From contig QPGO01000113.1 of assembly GCA_008632985.1 (NCBI GenBank), forward strand, positions 64,947 through 128,946: DNA of 64,000 nt, given 5' to 3'. A program made the position numbers and the translations under genes. A model generated the notes under the pieces. It was not told the origin of the DNA and did not search any database. It saw only the letters and a list, made by a program, of their open reading frames with translations. The stretch is from Psammoneis japonica (lineage: Eukaryota). This document shows, piece after piece, positions 31,941 through 61,208 of the stretch (positions are counted from its first letter, which is position 1; the number at the start of each line of letters is the position of its first letter).

Positions 31941-34900
31941 ATATGGCTGGAATTTTGCTGTCGCTATGTGAAGTAGGATTCTACCTAATGTAGTATAAAA
32001 TGTAATTAGCTCTCAAATGTTGATAGTGAGCAAGATCAACCGTTATATCTTTGTCCCCATACAAATTCTACAGCGGCTACTGATTTCGAAAATTCATGCA
32101 ACGCTTCGAAGCATTACAACATCGCCTTCGGCGACGCTGTTGATGCAAACTTGAAAGCAAAAGCAACAGCACACCGGTGCGTCTTGTCGAGTGCAATGGG
32201 TCCAAACATTACAGACCTCCCAGTTGGGAGTGGGTCCAAATTCATGGACCCTCTTTGTGTCCTCAACACATCCATCATCAACTGCATGGCAAGCCTGAGT
32301 GTGCCGTGGTGCTCTCTTTGCAAACTTGCGTGTGTGCTTGACAACACCTCATCCAACAAGCAGTGCCCAACCGATTTCTTGAAATTCTCTTTTCCCATTT
32401 TCTGTGACAGGAAAAGGTTTCGACACTTGCCTTTTGCACAAGCCCAAAGATGTTCTGCGCATTCCCACGCCAATTCAGAGCGGCGCTTTGGAGCCAAGAC
32501 CACACGCACTCCCGCGCGATGTGCGTGATGCTGAAGTGGTGCAGCTCCTTTCAAGATGTCCGCACAAGAGGCAAGCATCTCCACAGGAAGAGTGCGCAAT
32601 GAAGCACTGTCGCACTTTGAGCTGCGGGACAATTGTTGCCAGCTGCTGGTGCCTCTGATGCCGTCGTCGCTTGGTGCCACCCTTGGCGCCACCCTTGGCT
32701 TTGCTCTCTTCTGCCGACACCACGTGGGCAGGCAGGGCCTGGACCCATTCGTTCTTGAATGCAAACAAGCTGTTCCAGAGCTGCGGCAGCAGTGCCTGCA
32801 CTCCTTCGATTGGCTCAGCAGTGTTGTTTGGGGTGTGCGCTCAGAGACCAAACTTGCACCCACTCCTGTCTGCCTGCTGCTCAAACCAAACACACATCCA
32901 TTGGTGGAGAAGGCACAAGTGGCCAATTTGTTCCCAAAGCGAGCAGACGGCAGTGCAGACAAGCCCCTGGCAGTGTGACAACGAGCCATCATCATTGGCG
33001 ATTCAAAAGTGTGATGTCAATTGATCGACAGAAAGCTGCAATCCTTGAAATCGTCTCGTCCTAAATTGTGCCCATTGAAAGTGCTCCCACTATGCCCTTG
33101 CTGATGCTTGGTGGCAAAGAACAACCAGGTTTGCAAGATCATGACAAATGTCAATGTTTTTTGCCAAAGACTTGGATCCGACAAAGTGGCTGAGATTCTC
33201 GTGTCCAAACGGAGGTTCGGGAGTTTGCAGTCCTTAAAACGTCTTGCAGGTTGGTGCAGAACCAGGATGCACGGGCTTTAATTTTGTCCTTGAGTTGCTT
33301 CAAGCAACTTGTAAAGTCGGAAAAGGGGCTGGGCTTGACCACCATGTTGGCACTCCGTTTCGCACAAATTCGCCCCGTCAGCAACAATGTTGCTCTCTTC
33401 CATCAAACTCGAAACCCCGCACCCCGTTGATGCTGCCACACGGCTTCTTCAATTGTCCACCCCTGTTTTCGACTCTCTCATCATTGATGTTGAATTTTGC
33501 ATTGCAGCACTCTGCCCACAGGTCCGCTGGCATCCGTTGATTCTGAATGCGAGAATCCAAGAACAGCCAATGCATGTGTTTTGACACGAACGATTTTCGG
33601 ACATCAGACATGATGGGTTTTTGCACTTCGGCCCTCAGGGAGCTTCGCAGGTGGGTTGGTGAGGTGGGTGCAGGTCGCAGTGCTAAAAGCCATGGATTTT
33701 CAAGAAGCTGTGAGCATCATCGTCAAGCAACCGGGCACGCGACAATTCTCGTGCTTTTTGTTTTCCCTCCAACAAAATGAACTTCAACTTGGTGCCATGG
33801 CTGAAATTGATTTTTAGAAATTCGGAGTGGATTTCTGCACAGTCAGTGCAACACGTCACCAAGTTGAAGTTCATTTTGTTGGAGGGAAAACAAAAAGCAC
33901 GAGAATTGTCACGTGCCCGGTTGCTTGACGACGATGCTCACAGCTTCTTGAAAATCCATGGCTTTTGGCACTGCGACCTGCACCCACCTCACCAACCCAC
34001 CTGCAAAGCTCCCTGAGGGCCGAAGTGCAAAAACCCATCATGTCCAATGTCCGAAAATCGTTCGTGTCAAAACACATGCATCGACTGTTCTTGGATTCTC
34101 GCGCTCAGAATCAACGGATGCCTCCGTTTGGACACGAGAATCTCAACCACTTTGTCGGGTCCAAGTCTTTGGCAAAAAACATTGACACTTGTCATGATCT
34201 TGCAAACCCAAGTTGTTTTTTGCCGCCGAGCATCAGCAAGGGCATCATGGGAGCACTTTTGACGGGTGCAATTTAGGATGAGACGATTTGAGGATTGCAG
34301 CTTTCTGTCAATCAATTGACATCATGCTTTTGAATTGCCAATGATGATGGCTCATTGTTGTGCTGCCAGAGGCTTGTCCACACTGCCGTCTGCACGCTTT
34401 AAGAATGAATTGGCTGCTTGCGCCTTCTCTGCCAACAGATGCATGTTTGGTTTCAGCAGCAGGTGGACAGGAGCGGGTGCAAGTTTCGTCTCTGAATGCA
34501 CACCCCAAACAACGCTGCCAAGCCAGCCGAAGGAGTGCAAGCGCTGCCATCGCAGCTCTGGAACAGTTTGTTTGTGTTCAAGAATGAATGGGTCCAGGCC
34601 CTGCCTGCCCACGTGGTGTCGGCAGAAGAGAGCAAAGCCAAGGGTGGCACCAAGCAACGACGGCACCAGAGGCGCCAGCAACTGACGACGATTGTTTCAC
34701 AACTCAAGATGCAGCAGCGCTTCAGCGCACACTCTTCCTGTGGAGATGCTTGCCACTTGTGAAGATTTCTTGAAAGGAGCTGTGCCACTTCAGCATCGCG
34801 CACATCGCATGGGAGTGCGCGTGATCTTGACTCCAAAGCGTCACTCTGGGTTGGCACGGGCAGGCACAGAGTGTCTTTGGGCTTGTGCAAAAGGCAAGCA

Positions 34901-35383
34901 TCGAAACCTTTTCCTGTCACAGAAAATGGGAAAAGAGAATTTCAAGAAATCAGTTGGGCACTGCTTGTTGGATGAGGTGTTGTCAAGCGCAAACGCAAGT
35001 TTGCAAAAAGAGCACCACGGCGCACCCAGGCTTGCCGCGCAACTGATGATGGTGTGTTGAGGGCACCAAGAGGGTCCATGAATTTGGACCCACTCCCAAC
35101 TGGGAGGTCTGTAACATTTGGACCCGTTGCACTCGACAAGACGCACCGGTGCGCTGTTGCTTTTGCTTTCAAGTTTGCATCAACAGCGTCGCCGAAGGCG
35201 ATGTTGTCATGCTTCGAAGCGTTGCATGAATTTTCGAAATCACGTAGCCGCTGTAGAATTTGTATGGGGACAAAGATATAACGGTTGATCTTGCTCACTA
35301 TCAACATTTGAGAGCTAATTACATTTTATGCTAGATTGCGTAGAATCCTACTCCACATAGCGGCAGCGAAATTCCAGCCATAT
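31941..35383. mobile_element. Foldback / long inverted-repeat element (arms 31941-33794 and 33857-35383, 62-bp spacer)
   Basis: The arms are reverse complements from ATATGGCTGGAATTT... to ...CAACTTGGTG. The right arm lacks ~315 bp (33215-33530). Possible TA TSD. Each arm carries the same degenerate outward-reading ORF. Confidence 0.88.
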
Positions 35384-41432: not shown

Positions 41433-42117
41433 TTTCATTGACCACTCAGCAGTGTTGGTGGCTGCAGACTTTCATTGACCACTCAGTGGTTGGTGCTTGA
41501 AGACTTTTTTGTGGCAGTCCGTCGGGGAGTCCCTCACGCAGTTAGGGAATCCGCCACAATTTGAAGGTGTGTCTCCCGTGTGCATTTTTGAATGGCACAT
41601 GGGCTGCTCAGTGCAAATGAGCTGCTCAAATTCACGGAATGATCATTGAGGACATTAGAGTTTGTGGGGACTTCCTAAAAAATTGACAAATTCCCTGCAA
41701 TGGGTGCATGGAACTGTTTTTCAGAAGAGCTTGAAACTGCTGCAAAATTGGGGTTGCCGGCACAGCATGTTGAAAAATGCGCTCAGCTTTGTGTGAAGAA
41801 AATTTGCAACGAGTTGCACATGAATTGGTCAGATTGAAAAAAAAACATGTCAAACAACAAAAGTGAGTTTCTGCAATGTGCTGTTTTGGCAGCAAATTGG
41901 ACAAAAAAGAGTGTCCGTGCACTCTTGCCACAACCCCAAAAATGGCATGAGCCATCAAACACAATGGCCGTCTGTGTTGCTGGCGGCCCTGCCACCCTGC
42001 CGCTGCACAGGCACTGTGCAACAGCAACAAACAATGCAGGCACTGCATGACAGCACACACCCACACCCACAAAGAGAAAGACAAATGGTCAATGCTCCCC
42101 ACAGGTGCCTGGTTTTT
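41433..42117 (+). mobile_element. HINE/DINE-1-like element, copy 3 (diverged, TpA-depleted, duplicated 5' end)
   Basis: CATTGACCACTCAG at 41436 and 41473; TGGTCAATGCTCCCC...CCTGGTTTTT end; colinear with copies 1 and 2. Confidence 0.68.
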
Positions 42118-43461
42118 GCTGAGTGCCCACACCGCCAACCAATGTCAGAGTGCTGCATGATTGCCAGTGTTGAGTGTGAAGTTTTGTGGGACAAGATTTG
42201 GGGTTAAGAGCAGAGGCTCAAATTGCAAGCCAATGACACACAAGCCAAAAGTTGTTTTTCTTTGTTGTGCCTCCTCCTTTCCAAAAGGAAATGGCGCTCA
42301 TTCTCAAGCTCTTGGGGAAGAGCCAGTGCTCCAGCCAAAGGAAATTTCTTGGGTGTGCTGTGAACAACAAAATGTGCCTGCTGCACATGCTCACAAGACA
42401 TTGGCAAAAATGGCAGGTGGCCAACCACCCTTGTCATCTCCCCTCCCCTTGCTCCCTCTGAATGCGCGCTTCTCTCTTGTCTCTCTTGCTGCTGCACACA
42501 CCACTTTCTCTGGTTTCTGCCAGCAGAGGCATGTGTCGCAACACAGCCCACCTGGGTGTCCACAAACTCTTTTCCACAAGAAAAAGTTTCAAAGTTGACC
42601 AGGCCTGCCCATTTTCTCCAGAGCCCTGCTGGGGAGGGGGTGTGCTGGAGTGCTGCTGCTCTCCACACATGCCGTTGTTTTTGGCAGCTTTCAACACCCA
42701 CACTTTTCTGTCACAGAGACCTGCCACAATTCAAATGTTGGCCAGTTGATTGAGCATGGTTTGTGGCTGTCAATTGTGGATGCTTTTCTCATTTTCTTCA
42801 CTGTGTGACACACTCTCTCTCTCACTCTGTTGTGCTGTTGTTCATGGTGGTGCAGTGCTGCCTTTCCCACACTGGGCATGGTGTGCCTGGCTTGCCTTTT
42901 GCCATCTTTGCTGCTCTGAATGACAAAGCAATCCATTTGACTTTCCAACCTCAATCAATGAGCACCAAGATTTTTCTGGCCTTGTTTTGGAGCTTTTCAA
43001 GATGGTGACAACTCCTGCCTGGAATTCTCCATCTGATGACATGGTCAAACAATGGCAAGCAGAAAAAGCACATGCCAGAGCAGGTGGGTTCTTGTGGTGT
43101 GAGATGTGCTGGCTTGAGTTGGAAACAAATTTAGGGGGTTCTCAAATTGCAGAATTTGCTCTCACTGCTGGCTTGTAAAAAAATGTTGCACTGCAAAGAA
43201 AGTGCAACTGTGTTGTTGTTAAAAGAAGTGGTTGCACTCATTCTGCATTCACACTGTGATCACATTGCAACAGACCCTCTCTCTGGCAGGGGCACCCCCT
43301 GCACAGGGGCACTCTCCATGCAGAAGCACCCTCCTCACAGGATGAGAGCCTGCAGTGCATGCCAGAGACAAATTTCCAGCATCAATTTGGACTTTGATGG
43401 TGACCTTAAAGACAGTGTCCAAGATGACAACTGGAGACAAATGCCCACACAGAAAACCAGC

Positions 43462-46400
43462 TGCAGCACGCGACTGTCATGTGCATGTTTGTGATTGTGT
43501 GTCATTTGTGTGTCAATCGCACCACAGTCGTGGATGCGTGCAAAGGACAGAACGATCACACAGAGTTGATCGGATGTCGAGAATTGCAAATGCGATCGAT
43601 TGACGCGCACCCGGACAATCTGTTGTCACGAATGTGTTCTCCGAAAGGCCTTTTGTCTGTAGAAGCAGTGCAGAAGCTTTGGGCCATTGAGAACTCGTTC
43701 GGAGAAACCAAAAATCACAGAGCAAAATTCAATCTTATAATTTCCACTTTTCGCACACTGTTCTACTTTCGTTTGCACTCGTTCTTTGAGCACAGTGCAT
43801 TGTGCACACACACCACAGAAGGTAAAAAGCACGGAAAATGAAAATTTTAACTAGTGTGCCTTTGCAAATTCTTCTACAAACAGGAACGAATCGCATCAGT
43901 TCTGCTGGAATCGATTTCCGAGCGGAAGAAGCTCAAGCCGAGCAGTGCCTCAAGATGGAACGCTGTTTTTCGTCTGCCAGACAAGAGGATTCGCTCCAAT
44001 GCGGTCCATTCCAAGCACCCAAGGATCAAGGGCTCTCAAGTGCACCGCATTGTCAAAAAATCTACACCAAGTCATGGTTGCAGAGAATGCAAGTTCCGAG
44101 TCGATCAGGTCCGAGAAATGCATCTGGCATGCAAGGAGAGACTGTTGGAGAGTTTTTGGAGACCGAATCAACGAGCCTCGAGTCCAAGAGCAAGATGGAA
44201 CCGTTGGAAAGTGCCTCAAGAGTCTCACATCTCATGTCTTTCCAAGAATTGCACTTCAGAATCAGAGTTGTTATTTTCAAGACGATCTGAAGAAACCAGA
44301 GCTGCTTGACAGCAAGAAAGCCTCTGTTAGACCCAAGAGGTCAATGATGAGAGTCTGTGCGACCCTCAGATGGATTCTAAGTCGAATCTAGTGGGAAACC
44401 GAGCGCTGATTTATCAGCTGTCACTCGCACCGCAAGGATGGCAGCATCAGTCTACTGTCCAAAACAATCAACTGTTGCAACTCATCCTTGATGAGCTGAT
44501 TAAGTTTTGAGTCATCTAAAGGTCGTTCATGACGTCCGTGACGAAAAAACATGTCAACTCAGGCTCTGACAGCGCAGTTGGTTCCAAAATAAAAAAGGTT
44601 CCAAATTTGGTTCCAAAAATGGTCTCCCACATGGTGCCAGAACAATCCAAAGTGAACGCAAGGTCTCATCTTTGAAAAAAGAATGCCTGCGTCACGGATT
44701 GAAGCCATTCTAAAAATGAACTAGCAAAAGAGTGCAAGGGTGACTCTGAAAGAGACCCAAAAATGCGCCGTTCAAATGGCAATCGCACGTGGTCGCGTCG
44801 CGACAACGAAAATGCTGCTCGCAAAAAAAGAGATGAATGTCATGATTGATCAGGCGGTTCAAAAAACACTCAAAGCGAGTTCCTTGAACAAAGAAAAAGA
44901 GCACAAGGGCAAAGAATCAGATTCTGGTGCCCTCAGTGAAGAAAAGTGCCAATTTGATCGGATGATCCAGACTGAATCCGAAGAATGATTTTGGTCTGTT
45001 CACGAATCACATGCTTTGCTGGATGTCAGGAAGCCCAGAAAAAAGGCAGAAATAATTCACACCAGTCCAGGAGTCATCATTTGCATGAACACTTCCTTGG
45101 GAAAGGAGAGAAAGAAAAAAAGCATCTGCGTGTTCCTGTCGACAACGGAACATCGTCAACCACAATTTTGCGCAAATTCGTGCGAAAGTTGAGAACACAA
45201 GAATCCGCCACCAAAAACTTGGGAAACCAAGGGTGAGCTCTTTACGACTGACAGCAAACACCGAATTCAGTTCTCACTGTGCGAAATTTAAGGCATGCCG
45301 ACATGCAAACAGCATGTGTTGAAAACACCAAATTTTCTTCAGGTTCAAATGATGTGATCATGGGACGCGACTTAATGTCCAGTCCTGCAAGTCACATTGG
45401 ACTGCGCAAATGAAGAAATCCAATGGGAAGAAGCAATCACCTTATGAAGAATGTTCACACACTCTTCGATGCCGATGTTTTCAAGCTGAAAACCGATCAC
45501 ATTGAAAAACATGACGCCGTGAATGGAGTCAATGACGGAACCAATGGTCCTCGACTCACATTGTCACGCCATCGATCTTAATCAAGTGACAACTGCGGCG
45601 ATGCATCTAACCCAAATGAACACAACCAACTCAATCTTCTTCTTAAGAGGTTGAAATCGTTTTGAAAAGTTCCTCAGACGAATGCATGGGAAGCACCAGT
45701 GGATCTCATCGTGGAAAATCTGACGCGATTCCACGACGCGTGAGAACCTTCTCCTGTCACAGTCTTTGGAGGCGTCCAATCAAAAGGAGTTTGACCTGTT
45801 GTGAAAGATTGAAGTCTTGAGAATGAAATTGCTCTGAACAAGTCGCTCTGAGACTCATTGTCTAAAGAAAACAGGTCGAGTTCGACCGCACCCGACACTC
45901 AGAAGCTCAGCACAAGGTTCGTGCAGGTGGTGCATCCTTTGCCCAACATTCAGGAAATGCTGTTGAAGCAAGAACGTTTCATGTGTGTAATCCATTTGAT
46001 TCAAACATGGAATGCCACCATGTCAAATAAAAAAAGCACACGTCGTGCTCACACGAAAATCATGCCGTGGGGAGAAAATGAGCACTGTGGACTTCCAATG
46101 AGAATCCACAGAGCCCCAGACATTTTTGTGCAACACTTGAGTGAACTCATGACAGGTTTGAAGTTGTCAGAACGACTGTGTGTGATCGTTTGTGCCTGAC
46201 AAAAGTAACTTCAAAATGTCACCTGCACAAGCAACAGCTTAATGCGGCATTCAAACGACTGGAACAGTCGCTTAGAAGGTTGACAACAAAAGTCCTTCAC
46301 TGTTTAACTTGAAATAAACTGTCAAGACTTCCATGCGCAACGACATGCAATCGATTGCAAAGAAAATGGAGGCGATTCAAGCAATCGCAACATGAGAAAA

Positions 46401-48164
46401 ACGTAAAGAACACTGCGACATCTCGTTGTCATACGTTGCCATTGTCAAGACATGTAGTCTCAACGATCTCCTGCACAATGCCAGCCAAATTCACCTCAAC
46501 AAAGGTCAAACGGCAAAAGTGCAAGTACGGAACGAAAAGTCTCCGAAAATGTGGAGCGCATCAAATCAAAAACCATGTTGTTGTCATGCACGGATTTCAA
46601 CATCACACGTTACAACGGAAAAAAGAACTTCTGTCCACAGTGAAAACACTCACAAAATTCCGAAACATGCTGTTTGGCCAACAGATTTGTGCATGTGCGG
46701 ATCACAAGACACAATGGACAAAGTCACACGTTGACAACTTCAGTCCCGAATTAGAGTGCAACGAGGGCAAGGCGAACATCGTCGCGACAGACGCGATCAG
46801 CCGACTTGCCACAGAAAATTGAATCCTACGACAATGTCCTGCCGTTAAAACGGGATAAAGACATTCCCTCCAAATTGTCGGGCGCGACATGTCATACGAA
46901 CACTTTTCGTGGAGGCGAGCGAGATCGAAAAATGCTCATGTCACAAGGACAAAATCGCCTTTTTAAAGGACGATTTAGGAAAAAACAGTGACAGATTGGT
47001 GCACATTATACGCACCCACTTCACACTGGCAAAAGACAATCTCACAACACCCGCACGGTTGCATTGTACAATGCACGAGGCAAGACATTAAAATGTGCAT
47101 CATGTCGACACACGAGATGTGCCAAAGATCTAGAAAAAGAAAAGAAAAATGGACATTTGTCCACTTGGTGCACGAAACCAGTGCCTTCGGAATGACAAAA
47201 TGACACCGGTGTGTCAGAAAGAAACGTCCAAATGATGATTAAAATCCAACTGACAGATGGTTGAAGTGCAAAAAAAAAAAAAAATCCATGATGGAATTCA
47301 CAACCATCACAGGATTGATTGTCAAGACGAAATGGTCATGACATCTTTGACCATCGTTTGTTGTCACTTATGAAATGTGGCAGTGCAGCAGAGCAATGTG
47401 GCACACAAAGTGAGCCCGCCAAACTACATGAAATCCACAAGCAAGCAAGTGAACGCCACAATTGAGAGCGCACATTAAGTGCTGGGCACGATGCCATGCA
47501 CAATCGACATCAGGAAAAACACTCACTCCAGGACAATCAGTCCTTGTGTTCACATCAACAAGAACGTCAATGAGAACACTCGACGCAATGCCACATGTGT
47601 GCACATTAAGTGAGAAACAAACAATGTCACTCTCAAAAGACATTCGGAAATTGGAACGGCCCCATGTTGCCCACACAAAACAACAACAGTCATTGCCAAC
47701 GGCACAACACAGTGAAAGTGGAGACATCATTGACACTGTCGATGTCCGTCGAATGATCCACTTACAAATGACTCCAATGTGCAATTAGGGAGGCGAATGC
47801 AGCATGCGACTGTTGCACACATGTTTATGATCATGTGTCATTTGTGTGTCAATCGCACCACAGTCGTGGATGCGTGCAAAGGACAGAACGATCACACAGA
47901 GTTGATCGGATGTCGAGAATTGCAAATACGATCGATTGACGATGTTGACATCTTGCGTGTCAACAGCAATCGTATCCGGACAATCTGTTGTCACGAATGT
48001 GTTCTCCGAAAGGCCTTTTGTCTGTAGAAGCAGTGCAGAAGCTTCAGGCCATTGAGAACTCGTTCGGAGAAACCAAAAATCACAGAGCAAAATTCAATCT
48101 TATAATTTCCACTTTTCGCACACCACTCTACTTTCGTTTGCACTCGTTCTTCGAGCACAGTGCA
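43462..48164 (+). mobile_element. Full-length degenerate Ty3/gypsy element (copy 2): LTRs 43462-43799 and 47798-48164, PPT 47787-47797, TSD CAGC
   Basis: Paired TGCA...TGCA LTRs, AGGGAGGCGAA PPT, 4-bp TSD (43458-43461 / 48165-48168), fragmented gag/pol closely matching copy 1. Confidence 0.92.
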
Positions 48165-48399
48165 CAGCAGTGTCTCTTGCTCATGCTGCAGCTGTTTCTT
48201 CATCTCAAGATGCAGCTGCAGTGACAGGAGGCAAATCAAGGGGCAGCAATTGATTCTTTCTGTCTCTCTTGTTTCTCTTTTCTTGAGAGATGCAGAGTGG
48301 AAACGAGGTGTGATGTGGCATCCAAAAAGAGTGGTGGTGGTGCCTCTGAAAAAAATGATGATGAACAGCATGTGATGCCACAAGGACTCAAGATTCCAC

Positions 48400-50700
48400 A
48401 CTCCAAATTCTCACATTGAGCTCACAAAAGAGCTTGCACAACAACTGCAAATGACTGCAATTGTGGTTGCAACAATGGCGCTTGCAACCAAACTGACCCT
48501 GCATGGCAAGTGCCAACTGTGATCTGGTGAACAGTTGCAACCAATGTTTTGCAGCCATTCTCTGCAACTTGAGGCCCCTGGAAAAATTCATTTTTTGCCA
48601 GCCACAATCTGTCTCCACTGCCTTTGTCTCTCCTGTCACACTGGGAGCCATCCTTGCCTTTGTGGCTGGCACCAAAGCCAAGCAAGGAGAAATGCACAAT
48701 CACCTCTGCAGAGCACACTTGCAAAATTGTTTTTCAGCTGCCACATGGCCACATTGAAAAGAAGTTGAAAAGCCACAAATCAGCTGCATGTGCCTCTGTG
48801 CTCTCTCACACAATTGTTTTCCCATGTGCTGCTGCCATCAGCCAAACCTTGGCTGCCACCTCCACCTGCTCCTGCGCCAAACCTGTTGAGGACAAGCACG
48901 GCACAAGCACCAGCAGAGTGGTCGTTTGGTCTCAACAAGAACAAAACAAAACCCAAAACCCATTTTTAAAAGTGCTGCTGCACTTCCACCCTGCAGCTCT
49001 GGCAGCAAGCTAACCTGCACCACTGCACAAAGTGTGACAGCTGGCCAGGATTGGCACCACAGTCAGGTGATGCCATGGCAAAATGACTTGCAATGGTGTG
49101 CACACCTCCAGCAGCCATGGATGCTTGACTTGAGCATGAAGCCATGGCCAACCAGTTGTGCACTCCATGGTGTGCCAAGCAAGTGAGGTGAGCATCAATG
49201 ACCAAGTTCAACAGATGCAACCTCTCCTTTGTCAAATGGTTGTCTGCTCCAGAGTGAAGTTGTGCCTTGACTTCCACCTCAGCATTGCAGTGCTGAGGAA
49301 ATTTCCCATTCTTGGTTGGAATCATGTCCATGAACTTTGTGTCATCATGTTGTGAGTCCCGCAGTTGCCAACACAGTTGCTGCCCAAAAATTGACCAACA
49401 GACAGCTGATGCCAGCCAATGCTGTCTCCCAAGAATGGAGTGTTTTGAGGACACTGCAGCAAAGGCCATTGTCAACGCAGATCATCTCCTCATGAAACCA
49501 ACACTTGAGAGCAGATCATGAAAGCAAGTCACACAAGGATGCAAACATGTGAGCATCATCACACTTCTTGTGCAAGTGGCCTTGAAGGAACTTTCGACAC
49601 TGGGCTTTTGTTGCAGCAGGGGCACTGGAGCATCATGTGATCTCCATCCTCCACAGGATGTTGACAATGTGCACCACAGTCAGGCAGGTGGGATTGTGCT
49701 GACAAATGATCTTGTTCATTGGCGACAAATCTCAGATGAGCTCAATTGCACTGTGACTTTTCAACAAATGTTTTGTGATGCAAGCTTGGAGTGGATGGGC
49801 CAATCAACAAATTTGAGGAGGATGTCTCACAACCAGCCACACTTCTTCTTCTTCTTCACATGCTGATGTGCAAGGTGGCAGGGCTGGAGAAGCTTCGCAC
49901 CAAAGAAAACAGGCTTGTGTTTGAAAGAGACAGAAAAATCTTGGGCAGCTGAGTTTGCAGAGCAGCAAGACACATGTGGAGCTGGAAGAGCATCCCCAGG
50001 TGCAGGCCTTGGTGACCACTTGCCAACTTGTCATCTTGGACATTTTGCTTGGCAGGAAGAGACAAAGACATGTGCAGGGCGGCATTTCATCATCTTTGTG
50101 TGCTTTGACCCAATGGACATCAACTGAAGAAGTGCCAGATTGTTGGCCCGCTGTTGATGACTCCACAATTTGCTGAAAGGAAACAAACACACTCGCAACA
50201 TGATGCCAATGAAAACGGTCTCTGTCTGCACTGGATGACTCCCCATTTTCAGGAGGTGGAGGCAGCAGGGCACCACAAAAGTCAAAAACATTCTGGACCA
50301 ACACAGAGTTGTCATCACAGTGCATGTCAGTGCCTCAGAGAAAAACCTGATTGCAAGATCCCACAAGTCAAAAAAGGATCTAAAGAAAGGAAAACAGTCT
50401 GGAAGCTGCAATGCTCTCAACTCTGCCAGCCTGCCAACACATGGGTTGCAATGTTTGCAGATGATCTGAGCAAGCATCCCAGCAACTGGCCAACAGCTTG
50501 TCTGGCACATCTGCCCTGTCTCCAAACCATCAAATTGAAGTTGATGGCAATCCACACACAGCTTGCATTTGACACTGTTCCCAATCAATTTCTTTAACTC
50601 AAGACACTCTTGTCAACAGCAAGAAGTGTCATGAACTTTTCCATGTCCCCGCAAATGCAAGAATCAACAGTTGGAAAAGCCACCACTTCTGGACACTGAC
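48400..50700 (-). mobile_element. Highly degenerate RNase H-containing non-LTR retrotransposon remnant
   Basis: VHWVKAHKDD (HWVKAHQD-like) and CD.NS.LV RNase H-like motifs, with a downstream IPT...P.C...E...HL knuckle-like segment; both TA and CG are nearly absent. Confidence 0.45.
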
Positions 50701-51227
50701 TGAACATGTCAAGAATCAAGAACAAAGATCATGATGCATCAACAGTTGTCATTGTTTGCTTCTCTTGTTTGCCACTTGCTTCAAAGGCGAATTTCAAATT
50801 GAGGAAAGGGCCCGCGTTGCACAAATCATCTGCCGGTGAGGCTCGGTCTACAGGTGTGCACTGTGCTCGAAGAACGAGTGCAAACGAAAGCACAACGAAG
50901 TTCAAAAGGTGAAAATTGTGAGAATTGTTTCTCAATGGCCTAAACCTTTTGTACTGCTCCTACAGACAAAAGGCCTTTCGGAGAATATGATCGTGACGAC
51001 AGATTGTCCGGATACGATTGACATTGACACGTAAGATGTCAACATCATCGTACGATCGCATTTGCGATTCTCGACATCCAATCACTTCTGTGTGACTGAT
51101 CTGTACTTCGTACGAACCCACGATTGACGTACGATTGAAATATACTTTTATTTAATATATACATATACATATATAATACGTACATGACAACGCATATTGC
51201 ATTCGCCTCCCTAATTGCACATTAGAG

Positions 51228-54200
51228 TCAGTCGTTAAACGGTATTATTCGACGAATATTGACAGTGTCAATAACGTTACCGCGTTTGATCTGTACTGTG
51301 CCATTAGTATGTACCGTTGTTATTACATACGGTCCAACATAGGGCTGTTCTAATTTTTGCGAGTCTTTCTCGAGTAGTATCTTTTCTCCTACTCTGTACG
51401 TGTAAGGAGTACGTCGAGCATTCTCTCGAGCGTTATTTTTATTTATGATTTCTTGTTTTCGCTGCTGGATTAATTTCCAGTCCGCGACATGTTGGACGTT
51501 AAATATCATGTCTCTATTGAAGACTAGTTGTCCTGGTGTAGCTTGCGTAGTAGTATGATACGTAGAACGTACTGCAAACGCTACCGCTGATAGTATTCCA
51601 GCGAAAGGATCCTCAGCATCTAGAGGTGTATGTTGCAAATCAAATGTACGGAGCATGTTCCCCAGTGCTTGATGTACGCGTTCAATAATTGCGTTTGCTT
51701 GTGGATTTCGTGTAGTTGTGGGCTTGACTTTAATGCCACAATCATCTTGCACCATTTCTCTAAATTGGTGTCCGATGAACTCACTTCCACGGTCACATGC
51801 AATTGACGATGGCCAAGGATGTCTGCTTGGCCATGTTCGTTCTAACAGTCCAGCCACAGTTGTGGACTCCTCATTTGGGATTTCCACAACTTCAAACCAT
51901 CCGGTTGCTGGATCGATCATAGTTGGACATTTCAGGACTGGGGGGTTTTCCTTTCCCTCACGACGCACTTTGCATGGCCCAATGAGGTCCACACACAGTC
52001 GTTCCCATGGTGCGGATTCTGCACACTCAGGAGGTAAATGTCCACATTTCTTGTGTTTCTTTTTGAATTTTTGGCACGTCTCACATCTCGACATGCATTT
52101 TCGTATGTCTTCACGCAAGGTGGACCACCACAGGTGTTGTGAGATTGTTTCTTCTGTTCGATCCATGCCAGGGTGAAGAAGGCACGTGTGATGCCAATCC
52201 ATCACTGCCTTTTGTGACGTCCTCGGGACGACAATTTTGTCCTTGTGACATGTGAGCAACCGGTCTCGCTCGCCTCCACGAAAAGTCTTTGTGTGAAACG
52301 TCTTTATTTGACAATTGGGAGAGAATGTCTTTGTCCCGTTTTTGTTCACAATCAAGAACTTTGTAATTTAACGGAAAGACATTGTCGCAGGATTTTGGCA
52401 GGACCTTTTCAGCTGGCTCTTCTGTGCTGAGGGTTTCCACAGGTTCTATTTTCTTCATGGCAAGTCGGCCAATCGCGTCTGCGACAACATTTGCCTTGCC
52501 CTCAAGGTGTGTCATTTTGGGACTGTGTTCTTCCATTGTCAGACGCCAACGCATGACTCTGTCCGTTGTGAAATTTTTGTGTGTGAGATTTTTGTGATCC
52601 GTGTGTGTGTTTGTCTGTTGGCCAAACAGCACATTGCGGAACTCTTTCAATGTCTCCACTGTGGACAATGGCTCTTTTTCCATTGTGGCACAACGCGTCT
52701 GCGCTCCATTCAGCTTGCGGCTGTAGAAGGCAATTGGTCGGTTTTTCTGAGCAATGACCGCCCCCAATTGAGAATCACTGGCATCGGTGCATGTCTCAAA
52801 GGGGACATTTCGGTCCATTGCCACTTTACTTGGGTAGAAGTGAGTTTGGCTAAAGGAGCTAAAACATGAGATCGTCGAGGCCACATGTCTCGACAGCAGT
52901 TGATCATGCCGACAAAGCGTCGCAATTCCTTGCGAGTTTTAGGAGTTGCGATCGCGTGAATCGCTTCTGCTTTTTTTGGAATCGGACTGATGCCCTTGCG
53001 GGTGATGTGAAAGCCCAGACAGTCCACTTCGGGTTTAGCGAAAAAGGACTTCTCGGCGTTGACCTTCAATCCGGCTTGTTCTAGGCGCAAGAACACCGTT
53101 TCAAGCTTCTTGAGGTGGTCTTGAAAATCACTTTTTGTAAGACACAACACATCGTCAATGTAAGTTCTGACAAACTCCAGACCTGCCATGAGCTCACTCA
53201 TGTGCTCTTGGAAAACATCTGGAGCTCCACAGATTCCCATCGGGAGTCTGCAGCACTCACATTTGCCCCAAGGCATGACGATCGTGCACAAGCGACGCGC
53301 ATGCGGCGTCAATTCGATGTGATGGCATCCCATGTTTAAATCTAGGGACGTTGCATGCATGAAGCCTTCAAGCTTCTGTGGCACATCCTGAATGTTGGGT
53401 GGAGGAAACGGAGTGCAAATTAACCTCTCACTTGGCTCACGAAAGTCGGGTGAGAACCGAACTCTACCATTTTTCTTGGGTTGAATGAAGGTTGGAGCCG
53501 CCCATTCAGAACAATTTGTTTTTCTTGAGACTTTCAACTTGCATGGTCTTTCAACCTCCTTACGAGCAGTCGCCTCCAAGGCTTGTGGCACGGGAAATGG
53601 TTTGGCATGATGCGGACTCACGCCCGATTTCAACTTTAAATCCACCGGTTTCCCGGTCCATTTGCCTGGAGAACCATCGAAAAGGTTTTCAAATCTTTTT
53701 AAGAGGAAGTTCAGCTGCTTCTGCTCTTCAGGAGTTAGATGAGCAGCTGCTGCGGTCACATCATTGAGGTTTGCAGCGTGACAGTCTGAGTCAAGGATCC
53801 GATTGACCCTGTCATTAAGACCAATCACTGCATGAGATTCCTCAATGTGATCGGCAATCAACTTAAAAACATTGGCATCGAAGAGTGCACCAACATTCTT
53901 CATGGGAGCAGTTGCATCTTCCCATTTAATCTCTTCATTCGAGAAGTCCAATGTCATCCCAAGACTTGACATTAAGTCGCGTCCCATGATCACATCATGA
54001 CGACTCGAAGAAGAAGGGGAGTTGTCAACATGTGCCGTTGTTTCAATCATCTTATGTTTGTCAAATTCGGGTGAGGAGAATTGGATCTTACATCGACTGT
54101 CAGTCGTGAAGAGCCCTCCTTTGGTTTCCCAGAGTTTGGTGGCGGATGCTTTTGTTCTGAGTTTCCGCGTGAATTTGCGCAAAATTGTGGTTGACGATGT

Positions 54201-54356
54201 TCCGCTGTCGAGGAGAACGCGCAGAGGCTCATTTTTCGCCTTGCCCAATGAAGCATTCACATGGGCGACAACTGCTGGACTAGTGTGAATTACTTTGGCC
54301 CTTTTTCTGGGCTTCCCAATGTCCAGCAGAGCGCAAGACTCCTCTTGCAGTGCAAG
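51228..54356 (-). pseudogene. pol: pol of gypsy copy 3 (PR-RT-RH-IN), frameshifted and hypermutated
   Basis: LLDSG protease, YIDD RT, TDAS/IAFYSRKL RNase H, H...LHPG..C..C and D-D-E integrase, GPY motif. Deletion/frameshift near 52810 and frameshift near 52300. Confidence 0.9.
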
Positions 54357-55513
54357 TCATTCCTCAGAATCACTGCGCATCATTTTTTCAAACTGACAAT
54401 TTTCCTCGTCAAGGGCATCAGAATCACAATCTTTGCTCTTGTGTTTTTTGTCATTGTTCGAAGAACTCGCTTTGAGCATTTTTTGAACTGCTTGGATCGC
54501 CACAGCATTCAACTCTTCTTTGCGAGCGGCGTTGTCGTTGTCGCGACGAGACCACGTGCGATTGCCATTTGAACGGCGCCGTTTCGGGTCGGGTTCACAG
54601 TTCCCACGGCGTTCTTTTGCAAGTCTTTTGATCGACCAGCACTTGTCCGTGTTATGAGTGGATTTCTCGCATGAAATGCACCACTTCTCGGACTGAGATT
54701 TTTCGGTGCCATGTTGGTGACCATTTTTGGAACCACGTTGGGAACCACTCTTGGCTTTTGATGCAGCACCGCCACTGCCATCAGCCTTGGCATGAATGCC
54801 ATCAAATGTGTCTTCTGCGACCTCTGGGCGCTCCAAGAACTCAACCAACTCGTCACAGGCATGTTTCAAAATTTCGAAACCCTGGACGGTCGACTGACGC
54901 TGCCACTTTCGAGGTGCAAGGTTGAAGAGGATGTCCTTGAGCTCGTCGTCCTCGATCTTCTGTTCCTTCCCAAAGGGAGGATAGAACTTGAGGTCTTCGT
55001 TGACTTCCTGGACCCAAGCAGCAATTTCGCGTGCTTTCATGGACTCCGGCTTCTTGAGATCACGACGCAAACAACGTTTCTGTGCCGAAAGTGCGTTCTT
55101 GGGAAACACATGCCTCGTGAGATGTTGCAGGCATTTCTCGAAGCTTCCTTCCGCAGATTCGTCTTCAAGGTTCGCTGCCGCATTCTCGAAAGCACGTAGA
55201 GCGTCTCCTTGAAGTAACATGTGCATGAGACGAAACTTGTCAGATTGCTTCCTGATGTTCTGGCCCACTGGAAGTTGATCGTAGCTCTTGAGAAATTCGA
55301 TGAACTTGGGGACACCTTGTTTCTTGTAGTGCTCAACATTGATGGTGCAGGTGCGGCTATCCTTCTTCTCGGGATGAAAACGTTGCTCCATCTTGAGGTG
55401 CTGGCTCGGTTTGAGGCTCTTCGGCTCGGAGTTCGATTCCAGCGGTTGAGGGACGATTTTCTCCTGCCTTGACGAAGTTTTGGCATTGGTTGCATGAGGT
55501 GAAAGCTTCATCT
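54357..55513 (-). pseudogene. gag: gag of gypsy copy 3
   Basis: LLQGDALRAFE...LTRHVFPKNAL..QKR(Y>C)LRR.LKKP capsid-like segment and WC..C....HNT..C knuckle; TA-type missense changes. Confidence 0.8.
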
Positions 55514-58500
55514 TGAACTTATTACCTTCTGTGGTGTGTATACACAATGCACTATGCTCGAAGAACGAGTGTAAACGAAAGTATAACGAAGTTCAAAAGG
55601 TGAAAATTATGAGAATTATTTCTGCGCAATCATTTTGGGTTTCTCCGAACGGGTTCTCAACAGCCTAAACCTTTTGTACTGCTCCTACAGACAAAAGGCC
55701 TTTCGGAGAATATGATCGTGACGACAGATTGTCCGGATACGATTGATATTGACACGTAAGATGTCAACATCATCGTACGATCGCATTTGCGATTCTCGAC
55801 ATCCAATCACTTCTGTGTGACTGATCTGTACTTCGTACGAACCCACGATTGACGTACGATTGAAATATACTTTTATTTAATATATAGATATACATATATA
55901 ATACGTACATGACAACGCATATTGCAGGTGAACCGCGCCGGATCGGATCGACGGATCGGATCGCGTCAGAATTCCGTTAGTCGACAGGTGGAACCGGATC
56001 GGATCGCGGATCGGATTCGACATTTTGATGAGTCGCAAAACGACATAAGTTTCAAGATTCCAAACTCCCAAGAACAACAAAGCGCTGACAACAGCGAACA
56101 ACAAGAAGTGTGGCCATGATGCTTCACATCTTGTCATAACGTGACGATATGACGACAGAACCATACTGTTATTACTGCTATACATACATATGAGACCGCA
56201 TCATTGAGAATCGTTGTCACTCAGTGTTCGCAGCAACGCTAAGGAAGAAAAAGCTATCACTTTTGTAATTAGGAAACTAATGCAAATGTTTTCGTATTGA
56301 AATTTCGAATTAAATAATAAATACTTGTTATTTTGCTTATTCAATGTTTCTCCAACAAATCTATACGGCATTATCGGTTTGACAAGCTATTCTATTGCCA
56401 TGCGACCTTTCTCATCGTCATTTCGAGCATGGGAAGACTTTGACTATAATGCTCAGAATGTTCCTTGCCCTTATGGCTGAATCTTATGCCGTTCTGTGTC
56501 ATAATCGTGTGATGTTGTGCCATTGTCGTGATGACGGCACGGAATCTTCAAAATTGGATCCGACATCCGATCCGAGATGGCGGATCAGTCCCACGAAGGC
56601 CACGGATCGACTTTTTGACTCGATGGACTAACATTTTAATGGGTTATGAAGGAGTCGATCCGGCGATCCGATCCGGCTCGGTTCACCTGTAGACCGAGCC
56701 TGAGACCTTGCACCTTTGCAACTTGTGCCAGATGTGCTGCCATTCTGTCTCATCTGGTTCCACAAGACAAAGACCAAATGTGTCAAGACTCTTTGCATTT
56801 TAACTGCCTTCATTCTTGGCTCAACAAAAGAAAAACACCCAGGATGGAAGAATCTGACCGGCGGACCTTTGCAAAGCAGCTGCTTGAGCACTCTGATGAA
56901 TGATGGGCTGTTCTTGAAGCTGCAAAAAGTCCTTTTCTGCCTGGACACTTTCTTGTCTTCACTTGGAACATCCTCGTCCAATGATGTTTCTGCTGCTGCC
57001 ACAATGGCAAAAAAGTGTCTCCATTGGAGAACTCCAATTGTTTTTGCCAACAACAGTGCCCAGCAGGGGATCTGTGGCAGGGTGTCATGTGAGAGCTGTG
57101 TTGTTGGAAAATGAAATCTTCCTGCTGATGTCGAACTGATCAAGATTGTCTGGGATCATGGGATGGAACAACCCAACACTGCCAGCACCAAATCCAAAGT
57201 CCTCCATGGAAGTTAGTTTTCTTTGGGGCTGGGCACAAAAAATTGCACGCGCATGATCTCAAAGCAAGTGGGCGGCAGTTGTGATTTTCTGGGGGGCTGC
57301 CGTGTTCTGTTGCCTGGCATCCAAGCAAGTGCAACCTTTTTTTTGACAAGTTTTTTCAAGAGACTTGAGTTGCACATGGTTTTGGCAACATGTTTGTCAG
57401 TTGACATGATGGCATCACATGCCTGGCCAGTCTGATTGAGTGCATTGATGGATCCCGCATGGCGACCCATGATTGGAACAATGACCATGCATGGCAAAAC
57501 ATCAAGGCAGTTTTTCTGACCAGCTGGCAGCATCTTTTTGAAATCCATGTGTGCTTGATGCCTGCATCATTGACTCTGTTTGCTTTTGTGCACTTTTTGT
57601 TTGACCCGTGGAGGAGACAGGTTGTTTCAGACCAACTGCGTTGTTGATCAACACCAAACAAAAAATCCTTCACAAACCAGAAGGAAAGGGCAGCTGTTTC
57701 ACCCACCAGAACAAGATGAGCAATTTCCACTTCATGGCTGTGTTGCTCCCCAAAAGCACGTTTGTTCTCAAAATGGCCTGTCGGCTTTGGCTCTGGGAAC
57801 TTGTGCGGGTTTGTCCATCAAATCATGTGTTGGTGCCACATGTTGTTTGTGCACAGCTTTGTGCACACACTTGTGTGGATTGTTGGTGATGAGACGGACA
57901 GCACATGTTCAACAGGCTTCAGTTCTTTGCTGCTGCTGTTGTTGTTGCTGCACGCAGCTGTCCAGTGCTTGGATTTTGATTGAGTCAAATTCGATTGTTC
58001 CATTTGGCATTCTGCTGACTGGTTTTTGTCATTTTTGCCATTGTTCTCTTGATGGTTGATCGCATCAGAATCTGCTTGAGCATTTGCATCACACACCCCA
58101 TTGCTGACCAACAATTCATTGATCAGGGCAAAACAACTGCCGAACGAAATTTCCCTTTTGTCAACAAGAGAACAAAAAAGCTCATCTTTCTGAGCTTCCA
58201 ACAGTGTCAAGTCTCTTGTTGTCACCTTCAGAGCCCTGGCATCATCTTCTGCAGCTTCCTCCATGCTGCAGCACAGGTGCTTTTTGTCAAGAGTGTTCAA
58301 CAGCAAATCTTTGGCACTCTGCTCCAGTTCCAAGTTGTTGCTGTTCTTGTTGGTTCTTGATCAAAGAACATTGACTGCAGCTGGTTCGGCAATGTTTTTT
58401 GCTTCATTCCCAGCACTGCAAAGCACAGCACTGGAAAAGGAAAACAAGCAAGAAGGAGCCAAGGTTGGAACAAACAAGGGCTCAACAGGCATTGAGAATT

Positions 58501-59046
58501 GGAGAAGGAGACACACAAGAAGAGATTGAGCAAGTCAAAGATGCAGAGCAATTTGACAAAGTGTGGTCCAAGGAATTTTGGGAATGCATTGACAGCCCAG
58601 AAGCCACCATGATGGACAGGATGGGCAACAAGACAACAATGGAGGACAATGACAACATTGATGAAGAGGAGTTGTGTTGTGTGGAAGCATCGCAGACAGC
58701 AGCAGTGCAGCAATTGGAGCGATGATTCACAATGAAAGGTGAGACAAGAAACAGCTGATTGCCAATGTGAAAAGGGAGCCAAACAGCAAACAAAAACCTG
58801 AAGCAACAGCACACTGTGCAGTGGGGTTGCATTGAAGTCCTCCATGTTGCATGACAACCAGACATGGTGGGCACAGCTGTGTGAAAAGTCAGCACACCAG
58901 CGTGACAAATGCCCAAATTAAAATGAGCTGGGACCCACAGTTCTTGCAGCAGAGTGTGGTGCTGGCTTGAGGTGAAAAAATTCATTTTTTGCCATCCACA
59001 CTCTGGCAGTTTTTGGAGTTGGTGTTGCGCGCATCTCCACCATCTT

Positions 59047-60897
59047 TGTTGGAACATCAGGGTGCAAAGAGTGATTTTTGCAGAACAGACAGACAATGTT
59101 GCAGTGAGCAATGCACTGTGAGGAGCATTGATGCCATTGTGCTCACAACTCATGTCAGTCAGGGGTCTTGTGCTCACTTTTTAGCTTCTGCACCCAGTTG
59201 ACATGGTGGTGGCAGCAATGGCAACAAAAGTGCATTTGCAATCCATGTGGCAAGTCAGGGTTGGTGAGACTGAGCACACACCAGCTGGCAAGTGGCAAAA
59301 TCTCAACACAGAAGCTGAAAAGGACCAGCTGGGAAGTTGTCAGAAATCCAAAAGGCGCAGCTCATGTCAATGGATTGTGGCACAAACAAGCTGGCTGGAT
59401 GAAGGCAGAGAAACAGTCTCTGGCAGAGAACCTTGCTGTGAGGAAGCTGTCAAGGGTCTGCCAAAAGAGGGTGTGGCAAAGTTGTGTCAGACTGGGAAAA
59501 ACATCAACTTGAGCAAGGATTGCGCAGCTGAGTGCAGAAGCACAAAAGATTTGAAGGAGTGTGTGCATGACACTCATTGCCAAGTTGGGTTGACAGGCAG
59601 ATGGTCACACAGAGACCACAAGAAAAACAAGCTGGCATGTCAGAACAATGTTTGGGTCAGCAACAATGTGCAGGTGCTGGTGTCTCTCAGGCAGGAGAAC
59701 AAACCAGCAGAGGAGCCAGAGTGTCCATTGAGCACAGCTGTGCTGGAGAAGGAAAAGGCAATCTGGGAAAGCAATGCAGTCATTGTGTGAAACAGGATGC
59801 AATCTACAAGACACAGAAGGTGAAGACATTTGGCACAATTGTGGGACAGTGCATGAAGGCTGTCCATCACAAGAGGTTGAAGCAGAGTGGCAGAGTTTGA
59901 GAGGGTCACAAAGGAGTGGGGCATGGCTGGGCACTGTTGAAAAAGCTCAAGTCAATCTTTTTTGAGATGCACATGAGAGAATCTGCATGAATGTCCAGAC
60001 AGCAGTTGGTGCTGTTGGGAATCCTCAAGTGGATCTTGTTTGAAGCAAGCAAGAGAATGTGCTTGCATGTCCAGGCTGCCAAGGCTTGGAAGGAGTTGGT
60101 CCTCATTCATCAGGATGAAGGAGAGGTGCTTCAAGATTGTTGCAATTGTTGGCTTGTGAGCATCCTTGAGATGGTGGAAGGGCCCTGCAGCAGACTTGTC
60201 CCAGAAGAAATCACCAAGAAAGAAGATGGGTTGGCAAAAGTGCTGATGACAACCAGAAGAATGAAAGGAACAAGTTGTTCATGGTGCTGCCAGTCAAGGG
60301 CACCAAGGAGTGTTGATGCATCTTGAAAAACCTGCGCCAGCAGTTCACACTGGGGATCAACAATTGCCCCAATTTGGCTGAGGAGGCACTGCAGGTGTTG
60401 GACACATGCAGAGCTGACAAGAAACATGAGCTCATGAGCTTTGTGCAAAATGAGAAGAAGCAGCTCAAATGCTGGAAATGTGACAAGGTTGGGCATGTGA
60501 AGAGGAACTGTCATTTGCTCAATGATGATGATGATCATTTGTCAGTGGAGTTGGAACATGTCAGCCATTGGGATTGACAAGGCAGTTGACTTGGTGTTGG
60601 ATGAAGTGGTGGTTTCCAACTGCCATCCTCCTCTGAGGAGTGTGTTGGAACATCAGGGTGTGAAGTGGTTTTTGCAGGACAGACAGACAATGTTGCAGTG
60701 AATGATGCACTGACAAGTGGTGTTGATGACTTGACAATTTTGTCTTTGCAACTCATGTTGAGTTGTGGGTCTTTTGCTCACTTTTTAGTTTCTGCACCCA
60801 GTTGACAGAGAAACAGCAGTGGTGTCAACAGAAATGTGTTTGCAGTCTACACAGTGAGCCAGGGATCTGCAAAACTGAACACACACCAGCTGGCAAG
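59047..60897 (+). mobile_element. Degenerate gag-only copia (CoDi-like; TR-GAG-like) element with ~245-bp LTR-like repeats (59047-59291, 60643-60897)
   Basis: Direct repeats start TGTTGGAACATCAGGGTG; GAGGAGTG PPT precedes the second; gag remnant TLGINN(Y>C)P...EALQVL and CWKCDKVGHVKRNC knuckle; no room for pol. TSD not found. Confidence 0.55.
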
Positions 60898-61208
60898 CCA
60901 CGCATGTGCACCATAGAAACACGTGCACATGTCACCAGGATGTCTCCACTCAGCCAAAAAAGCTTTGCCCAATGCTGGGATCACCTGTTGGCTGGACGCC
61001 ACAAACAGCAAGTTGCTGCCTTGTTGGGGTGTGACTCATTGATTTTCCAGGTTGAGCTGCACCACACTTGCAGTGCTGCAACAATCTTGTTGGAGGGACA
61101 AAATCATTTTGTCTGTTGGGACATTGCAAAGCCATCTGATGGAAGTGTGTTGCGATCTCTGAGTTTTGCAAATTCCATCGATGACAACAAGCAAGAGCAC
61201 TGCTCAAC

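Follow-up and report, generated by a model that had tools for sequence, protein, structure and literature searches.

Why do the two long terminal repeats (LTRs) of a single retrotransposon insertion read CA in one and TG in the other at the same dinucleotide steps? The question is raised by a Ty3/gypsy-type LTR retrotransposon of the diatom Psammoneis japonica, of which three copies (c1, c2 and c3), with five LTRs in all, were detected by self-comparison of a 64-kb stretch of contig QPGO01000113.1 (positions 64,947 to 128,946, hereafter the window; features in Table 1). All the copy comparisons described here were made inside this window, and thus within one strain. The explanation that we favor, at a probability of about 80%, is a regionally targeted hypermutation of TpA that acts at the DNA level after insertion and hits each step once. 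Its direction, its dinucleotide target, its action on both strands, its post-insertion timing, the single hit per step and its regional restriction can all be read from the aligned copies.

The two LTRs of one insertion resolved the same TpA steps differently

Assignment of the element to the Ty3/gypsy type follows from the order reverse transcriptase (RT), RNase H and integrase (Pfam matches RVT_1, RT_RNaseH, Integrase_H2C2 and rve, in this order, in c3), together with the TG...CA LTRs, the 4-bp target-site duplications and the purine tract. An earlier note on this DNA had held that both c2 LTRs belong to one insertion, and the CAGC found on either side of c2 bears this out: as c3 is also flanked by a 4-bp duplication (CACC on both sides), 4 bp is the target-duplication length of the family and c2 is a single insertion. 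The LTR starts quoted in that note were likewise found in place, in c1 as the reverse complement of 3403-3346 and in c2 from 43462 and 47798. In the standard scheme of reverse transcription both LTRs of an insertion are copied from one template. Since the c2 LTRs descend from one template, the differences between them postdate integration.

Over 338 aligned positions the c2 LTRs differ at 19, and the 5' LTR carries a 29-nt deletion relative to the 3' LTR. All 19 differences are transitions, and 17 of them are polarised as A>G or T>C when the c1 LTR is used as outgroup, the remaining two being a G>A change in a TpG and a C>T change in a CpG. Thirteen of the 19 fall inside TpA columns of the c1 LTR, which make up 52 of the 338 positions (15.4%; Fisher p = 8.8e-8, binomial p = 2.9e-7). 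At the 27 TpA of the c1 LTR, both c2 LTRs carry the same product in 12 cases (TG/TG in 8, CA/CA in 4) and opposite products, CA against TG, in five; only one LTR is changed at three of these steps and both keep TA at another three, while three show transversions and one lies within a deletion. Where one LTR has CA and its partner TG, the ancestor must have been TA or CG, and CG is excluded because CpG counts are flat over the five LTRs (20-25) and TA is present in c1 and c3, whose LTRs hold 25-32 TpA compared with 4 and 7 in those of c2. Each LTR of an insertion is a substrate of its own, and the ancestral TpA steps that the pair shared were therefore resolved independently. The earlier proposal of a chromosomal mutation after insertion is thereby supported, as the c2 LTRs share a target duplication and yet resolve the same TpA steps differently.

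The opposite polarity, in which C>T changes at CpA/TpG like those of repeat-induced point mutation (RIP) made the c1 LTR rich in TA, or else the decay of a CpG ancestor, is scarcely credible as a general explanation. Sites with TA in two LTRs and CA or TG in three require two events either way, and CpG>TG/CA does happen in the older zones of the window. However, C>T alone cannot give CA and TG at one site, only one of the 19 c2 differences lies at CpG, CpG remains at the same level in all five LTRs as TpA falls from 25-32 to 4-7, the mutated sequence is poor in TA, and three outside references described below put TA as the ancestral state. For the c2 LTR pair we consider both versions refuted.

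The c3 LTRs, a younger pair, differ at 10 of 345 positions, and at five of these 10 the 5' LTR has TA where the 3' LTR has CA or TG, as polarised by the other copies. The c3 pair reads as an earlier stage of the pattern in c2. Changes of the same kind extend beyond the LTRs: the region just 3' of the 5' LTR, presumed to be the primer-binding region needed for replication of the element, is TTGTGTATACACACC in c1 (3018-3036) and c3 (55529-55547) and TTGTGCACACACACC in c2 (43800-43818), which has two further TA>CA changes there relative to both other copies. A search of metagenome contigs for further copies of the family, made with a 23-base motif invariant among the LTRs, gave no match.

Three outside references give the direction of change

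The first reference was the RT family. The protease-RT frame of c3 was aligned with 80 of 120 listed homologs (553 passed E 1e-10). At the 17 columns in which tyrosine is the consensus of the 80 homologs, c3 has Cys at seven, His at four, Phe at three and Tyr, Arg and Ala at one each; 16 of the 17 conserved tyrosines are therefore gone, and 11 of the 16 are replaced by His or Cys. As TAY>CAY and TAY>TGY are the codon changes involved, Tyr to His or Cys amounts to TA>CA/TG. Other classes of conserved residues are retained at 57-100% in the same alignment. Tyrosine makes up 3.7% of the homologs but 0.2% of the c3 frame, and not one of the 120 homologs, which are best-scoring matches and as such biased against mutated copies, has less than 2%. 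At the same 17 sites a Tyr codon is missing from 15 in c1 and from 14 in c2. This near-total loss of conserved RT tyrosine codons would be a more direct sign of inactivation of the element than the erased promoter-like tract of the LTR to which the earlier note had pointed.

The second reference was a host gene, DGAT1, which encodes PH and MBOAT domains and whose functional 3' end is followed directly downstream by a mutated tandem pseudo-duplicate that is still a long open reading frame (ORF). Among 53 full-length DGAT1 homologs, 28 conserved columns differ between gene and duplicate; the gene has the conserved residue in 24, the duplicate in one and neither in three. The 12 aligned TpA of the gene appear in the duplicate as CA (4), TG (5), CG (1) and TA (2), and its 13 CpG as CA (2), TG (6) and CG (5), whereas 52 of its 56 CA/TG are unchanged. 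The DGAT1 homologs that carry names are all from diatoms, and the other host genes in the window are ordinary.

The third reference was a family of about 650 bp resembling miniature inverted-repeat transposable elements (MITE-like), whose copy A, just upstream of a DUS3L-like gene, is unmutated, and whose copies B and then C are progressively decayed. Relative to A, copy B has converted 26 of 27 TpA and 14 of 39 CpG, and copy C has 19 of 22 TpA changed to CA/TG and 29 of 35 CpG converted. It follows that TpA is lost first and fast, and CpG later. Together, the RT family, DGAT1 and MITE-like copy A confirm the direction TA>CA/TG. The earlier note had claimed that TA was changed to CA or TG on both strands and to near saturation, and these independent outgroups all point the same way.

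Each step is hit once, in a preferred context

The conserved tyrosine codons of the element differ in product among the copies, with CAT/TGT at one site and TGC/TGC/CAC and TGC/CAC/TGC at others, and TAT persists in c1 at one conserved site. Each copy was therefore hit separately. Comparison of c1 with c2 gave 49 CA<>TG swaps and not a single TA<>CG pair, and in the DGAT1 duplicate and the MITE-like copies steps that bear both changes are very rare among the converted ones. One change per step is what would be expected, because after one hit neither strand reads TA. Between MITE-like copies A and B, transitions per base reached 0.456 for A/T within TpA (26 transitions in 57 TpA bases, where one hit per step sets a ceiling of 0.5), compared with 0.042 for other A/T (11 in 260), 0.169 for C/G within CpG and 0.023 for other C/G.

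Two other candidates were discarded. GC-biased gene conversion was rejected, as A/T outside TpA changed to G/C at 0.042 and not at the 0.456 found inside it. Small local inversions were rejected as the source of the CA<>TG swaps, as neither LTR string matches the reverse complement of the other. The use of c3 as an intact outgroup for c1 and c2 was dropped, the spectrum that it yielded being symmetric and uninformative and c3 being itself hypermutated.

The context of the change was measured as TpA survival in symmetrised tetranucleotides, by setting the 239 TpA left in 32.6 kb of mutated DNA against the 1356 in the remaining 31.4 kb of the window. It was 0.71 for TTAA, 0.47 for CTAA, 0.22 for CTAG, 0.19 for GTAA, 0.16 for ATAA, 0.14 for CTAC, 0.08 for ATAG, 0.06 for GTAC, 0.05 for ATAC and 0.01 for ATAT. 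From the four palindromic contexts, survival per strand is about 0.84 with A, 0.47 with G, 0.25 with C and 0.10 with T as the base 3' of the A, and in a multiplicative model the products of these per-strand values come within about twofold of the survival seen in the six mixed contexts. The surviving TpAs fit a per-strand T-A-N preference in the order T>C>G>A. Applied to 65 informative events, pooled and in part sharing history, this context model predicted the product correctly in 45 (p = 0.0026).

In the explanation that we favor, a transition process aimed at 5'-TpA-3' would hit chromosomal DNA in silent or repeat-rich zones after integration. On the struck strand the A would later be read as G, giving TpG there and CpA on the other strand, and as the product would no longer be a target, each TpA would be resolved once, to TG or CA, with a choice biased by the base 3' of the A. 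Mutated elements would lose tyrosine and other codons that bear TA, and the zones would lose CpG to TpG/CpA more slowly, as deamination of 5-methylcytosine would give. As TA>TG/CA makes no new stop and removes TAA and TAG, long "ghost" frames persist in mutated elements.

If this explanation holds, the odds that its chemistry is the deamination of adenine to hypoxanthine in DNA are about even. A different chemistry, nested within the same explanation and differing solely in this step, would make the T of TpA the primary lesion, as an oxidised or modified thymine mispairing with G, or would invoke C-biased repair of T:G mismatches at TpA. By sequence comparison A>G on one strand is indistinguishable from T>C on the other, and the context rule can be recast as a 5'-neighbour rule for T. 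Moreover, 5-hydroxymethyluracil is found preferentially at TpA in dinoflagellate DNA. We regard a thymine lesion as possible though rather unlikely, since the sole experimental precedent, a preprint on the alga Bigelowiella natans discussed below, favours an adenosine deaminase, which is itself a proposal there.

Mutation is restricted to zones with sharp edges

Mapped in bins of 500 bp and of 100 bp, the window shows a bimodal distribution of TA, with sharp edges. The observed/expected ratio (O/E) of TA, which is 0.36 for the whole window, is 0.52 in host ORFs (18.1 kb), 0.69 in non-ORF DNA outside the zones (10.7 kb), 0.29 in the three element copies pooled (13.2 kb) and 0.07 in six relic zones pooled (21.3 kb). 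In the same order, CpG O/E is 0.94, 1.01, 0.93 and 0.37, and CA/TG O/E is 1.13, 1.16, 1.38 and 1.69. In each zone CA and TG are present in similar amounts, so that the process is strand-symmetric overall. The most decayed and oldest-looking zone is the one within which c2 lies and which c2 splits into a left and a right part. These flanks are nearly devoid of TA and CG while the CpG of c2 itself is normal; c2 therefore arrived later and has up to now been stripped of TpA alone.

Table 1. Features of the 64-kb window (TpA and TA counts as given; minus, reverse strand)
Feature	Position	Strand	Remarks
c1	1-3403	-	cut by window edge
c1 interior	1..3036	-	cut by window edge; TpA-poor, 0-4 TA per 100 bp
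c1 5' LTR	3037..3403	-	27 TpA kept; outgroup for c2 LTR pair
MITE-like copy A	12528..13195	+	unmutated; terminal inverted repeats (CATTGACCACT...); polarity reference
Relic zone	15501..21000		TpA-free; 1-6 TA per 500 bp; CpG O/E 0.2-0.6; holds MITE-like copy B
MITE-like copy B	15586-16261		in relic zone
Tandem array	17517-18123		42-bp unit x 14.5, 82% matches; inside TpA-free zone 15501..21000
Relic zone	25001..28000		TpA-free
Relic zone	32001..35000		TpA-free inner part of large inverted repeat
MITE-like copy C	41463-42115		in relic zone
Relic zone left of c2	41501..43457		almost no TA or CpG; contains MITE-like copy C; one zone with the part right of c2
c2 target-site duplication, left	43458..43461	+	CAGC; matches right copy
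c2	43462-48164	+	single insertion, Ty3/gypsy-type LTR retrotransposon
c2 5' LTR	43462..43799	+	338 nt, TG...CA; 4 TpA remain
c2 interior	43800..47797	+	disrupted by stops and frameshifts; TA O/E 0.13-0.26, CpG near normal
c2 purine tract	47787-47797	+	AGGGAGGCGAA; directly 5' of 3' LTR
c2 3' LTR	47798..48164	+	367 nt, TG...CA; 7 TpA remain
c2 target-site duplication, right	48165..48168	+	CAGC
Relic zone right of c2	48169..50852		0-4 TA, 2-13 CpG per 500-bp bin; end bins overlap c2 and c3 LTRs
c3	50857-55926	-	both LTRs present
c3 target-site duplication	50853-50856 and 55927-55930		CACC
c3 3' LTR	50857..51201	-	25 TpA
c3 end of interior	51202..51700	-	last ~500 bp (integrase C-terminus); TpA normal, tyrosines kept
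c3 hypermutated interior	51701..55547	-	TA 0-4 per 100 bp
c3 5' LTR	55548..55926	-	32 TpA
Relic zone	56501..61202		TpA-free and CpG-poor
DGAT1 3'-end tandem pseudo-duplicate	61203..61635	-	mutated; directly downstream of gene
DGAT1 (MBOAT) functional 3' end	61647..62072	-	polarity reference

An untargeted process can also be considered, in which the ordinary neutral spectrum favours TA>CA/TG and CG>CA/TG and unconstrained DNA drifts to equilibrium. TpA is indeed below expectation everywhere, host ORFs included, and older-looking copies are more depleted. We nevertheless hold this to be improbable, given that non-ORF DNA outside the zones keeps TA and CpG at 0.69 and 1.01 against 0.07 and 0.37 within them, that the distribution is bimodal and sharp-edged, with one edge inside an element, and that the young c3 is already stripped of TpA in its interior. 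Nor is TpA depletion a trait of the family, as 79 metagenomic relatives of the element, a best-scoring set biased against mutated copies, have TA O/E of 0.43-1.06, with none of them under 0.3.

The affected DNA comprises retrotransposons, MITE-like relics and a duplicated piece of a host gene. The LTR pattern described in the earlier note is thus real, although it is not confined to LTRs, as the zones, the DNA-transposon-like family and the duplicated gene piece are affected as well. One zone takes in the inner part of a large inverted repeat, whose arms (31941-33215 and 34121-35383, about 1.27 kb) are 88% alike and differ by transitions at 119 of 134 differences; its palindromic centre lies at 33529-34122, and each arm is TpA-normal over its outer ~400 bp and TpA-free further in. 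Long ORFs in several frames and on both strands are seen in the relic zones, for example at 16844-18442, 26068-26988 and 58485-59180, and the tandem array of 42-bp units is open in several frames of both strands, too. Of 70 zone ORFs of at least 110 aa, none matched Pfam at E 0.01; these ORFs are long because TAA and TAG are absent, not because they are coding.

Within the element copies the depletion is uneven. The earlier note had called the c1 LTR unmutated; c1 is indeed TpA-normal in this LTR, and only there, the TA O/E of its interior being 0.12-0.27. In c3 a boundary lies near 51700 (51600-51800), inside the integrase gene: upstream of it there are 0-4 TpA per 100 bp and no tyrosine, and downstream, where TpA is normal, 112 residues include five tyrosines. 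The mutated part of c3 holds gag, protease-RT, RNase H and the integrase N-terminus, spread over four long frames, and frameshifts and deletions occur in the mutated copies. The gag and pol of c3 lie in one frame split by a single TGA (54357-54359), and the aligned place in c2 is alike; this TGA could be a read-through stop or a former TAA.

Editing before integration, either of the RNA genome (ADAR-like) or of the cDNA (with APOBEC-like timing), would let copies arrive already mutated, and could explain the mutated interiors next to TpA-normal LTRs in c1 and c3 as well as the excess of shared products in the c2 LTRs (12 against 5). ADARs, in addition, prefer a 5' U, as cited in the B. natans preprint (bioRxiv 10.64898/2026.01.13.699255). 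We consider such editing very improbable, as the 19 c2 LTR differences must postdate integration, and RNA editing would give A>G in the sense strand alone, whereas four Tyr>His (T>C) are found here beside seven Tyr>Cys (A>G). The same signature is moreover carried by a DNA-transposon-like family and by a duplicated piece of a host gene. Finally, the spared part of c3 is just upstream of the 3' LTR, which is where cDNA editing gradients peak in the case of APOBEC3G.

Several observations weigh against a regional, post-insertion hypermutation of TpA. Six of the 19 c2 LTR differences lie outside any TpA of c1. Sites with the same product in both c2 LTRs outnumber those with opposite products, and some of the change in these LTRs may predate insertion, although context bias alone predicts about 57% of same products. 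A uniform zone-wide process leaves unexplained that the c1 and c3 LTRs, and with them the final ~500 bp of the c3 interior, have been spared up to a sharp edge, so that patchy targeting or recombination before insertion must be added; the c3 boundary suggests either tract-wise targeting that does not match the ends of the element, or template switching between the RNAs of mutated and intact copies. MITE-like copy A is a repeat and yet unmutated, and a simple triggering by homology is therefore not supported, although copy A may simply be younger than B and C. The context test pooled events that are not entirely independent of one another. Lastly, the term hypermutation itself rests on copy comparison in one 64-kb window.

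An artefact of assembly or base calling, by which a modified base at TpA would be misread in certain regions, also seems very unlikely. A single public run contains the stretch, and it is possibly the source of the assembly; 72% of the exact 31-letter words sampled from a mostly TpA-free stretch are present in the contigs of this run, which speaks against a misreading but is not independent evidence. TpA loss scales with ordinary divergence and CpG decay among the copies, identical local contexts yielded different products in one c2 LTR and the other, and the mutated copies also carry frameshifts and deletions.

Comparison with known mutation and editing systems

The closest known case is that of B. 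natans. In mutation-accumulation lines of this alga, two integrated viral regions mutate ~1000x faster than the remaining genome, nearly all the mutations being A>G/T>C and all at TpA, with TpG or CpA as product according to strand; a long-term footprint is seen in clustered windows poor in TpA and rich in CpA/TpG, where reverse-transcriptase and transposase-like sequences are over-represented, and an ADAT2-like deaminase is proposed as the agent (Mettrop et al., bioRxiv 10.64898/2026.01.13.699255). Both cases share A>G/T>C at TpA, regional restriction within the nucleus, TpA depletion with gain of CpA and TpG, and patchy activity, and in every sequence-level feature tested the diatom case matches B. 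natans. They differ in that the B. natans work, in a rhizarian (chlorarachniophyte), deals with de novo mutation, mainly of a single-copy giant-virus insertion and a virophage, whereas the process in this stramenopile is known from copy comparison alone. The substrates here are LTR retrotransposons, a MITE-like family, an inverted repeat and part of a host gene that was duplicated. Depletion is deeper in the diatom zones (TA O/E of 0.07, against 0.45 in the B. natans viral region) and, unlike in B. natans, is accompanied by CpG decay. The 3'-neighbour rule and the single hit per step belong to the diatom case, and the available text of the B. natans report does not contain them. The diatom window further contributes the evidence on timing given by the LTR pair.

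RIP, known from Neurospora and other fungi, resembles the process in this window in acting on DNA, by transitions only, at a specific dinucleotide and on both strands, and in ruining chromosomal transposon copies and duplicates. Its changes, however, are C>T, mostly at CpA, with a product that is rich in TpA, AT-rich and filled with stops. In the window the polarity is the opposite, A:T>G:C at TpA, and the mutated DNA is TpA-free, with CA/TG raised and no stops created.

Hyper-editing of double-stranded RNA by ADARs is similar in that A is read as G with a preference for 5' U/T, on the preprint's account. ADARs nonetheless act on RNA, and the LTR-pair differences and the relics of DNA transposons require a DNA substrate; A>G and T>C both occur in the sense strand, and repeats that are not retroelements are hit. 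The best base 3' of the edited A is G for ADARs, which differs from the order T>C>G>A found here.

Editing of cDNA by APOBEC3-type enzymes is likewise a deaminase hypermutation of LTR elements, serving host defence and visible in copy comparisons. It proceeds by C>U on minus-strand cDNA before integration and leaves a strand-asymmetric G>A, whereas the changes in the window are A:T>G:C, strand-symmetric and post-integration. Decay of CpG through 5-methylcytosine resembles the slower second component of the zones, CG>TG/CA with one hit per palindromic step. In the c2 LTR pair it accounts for one of 19 differences at constant CpG counts, and it was found solely as that second component in the older zones.

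No report of the TpA signature in diatoms was found in the literature searched. The phenomenon is best filed as a TpA>TpG/CpA hypermutation previously described in one unrelated alga, in one preprint, and here placed in a new lineage and on new substrates.

What the process may mean for diatoms

A change of A:T to G:C at a defined dinucleotide, at the DNA level, is a mirror image of both RIP and APOBEC editing. We infer that the process would be guided to the zones in which it is seen and that it would serve in genome defence. As a tentative proposal, and one in which we place less confidence than in the hypermutation itself, diatoms and chlorarachniophytes may share a RIP-like defence of opposite polarity, old or widespread in SAR (stramenopiles, alveolates and rhizarians), in which a DNA adenine deaminase or its equivalent would act strand by strand with the specificity T-A-[T>C>G>A] and be guided to silenced repeat chromatin.

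Two practical consequences concern annotation and dating. With no TAA or TAG in hypermutated DNA, spurious long ORFs arise in all frames, and gene finders would probably call false genes there. Unless TpA and CpG sites are masked, ages derived from LTR divergence would be strongly overestimated.

If the explanation is true, the CA/TG-rich DNA with long "ghost" frames that makes up about half of the window would have been left by a stop-free process. The phenomenon would extend to a second major lineage of ecologically dominant algae, and would act on ordinary transposable elements beyond viral insertions. The context rule and the rule of one hit per step are constraints that any candidate enzyme must reproduce, and genes common to both lineages offer a comparative route to it; such a two-lineage comparison could pinpoint the enzyme, and it would be an A-to-G editor of DNA found in nature.

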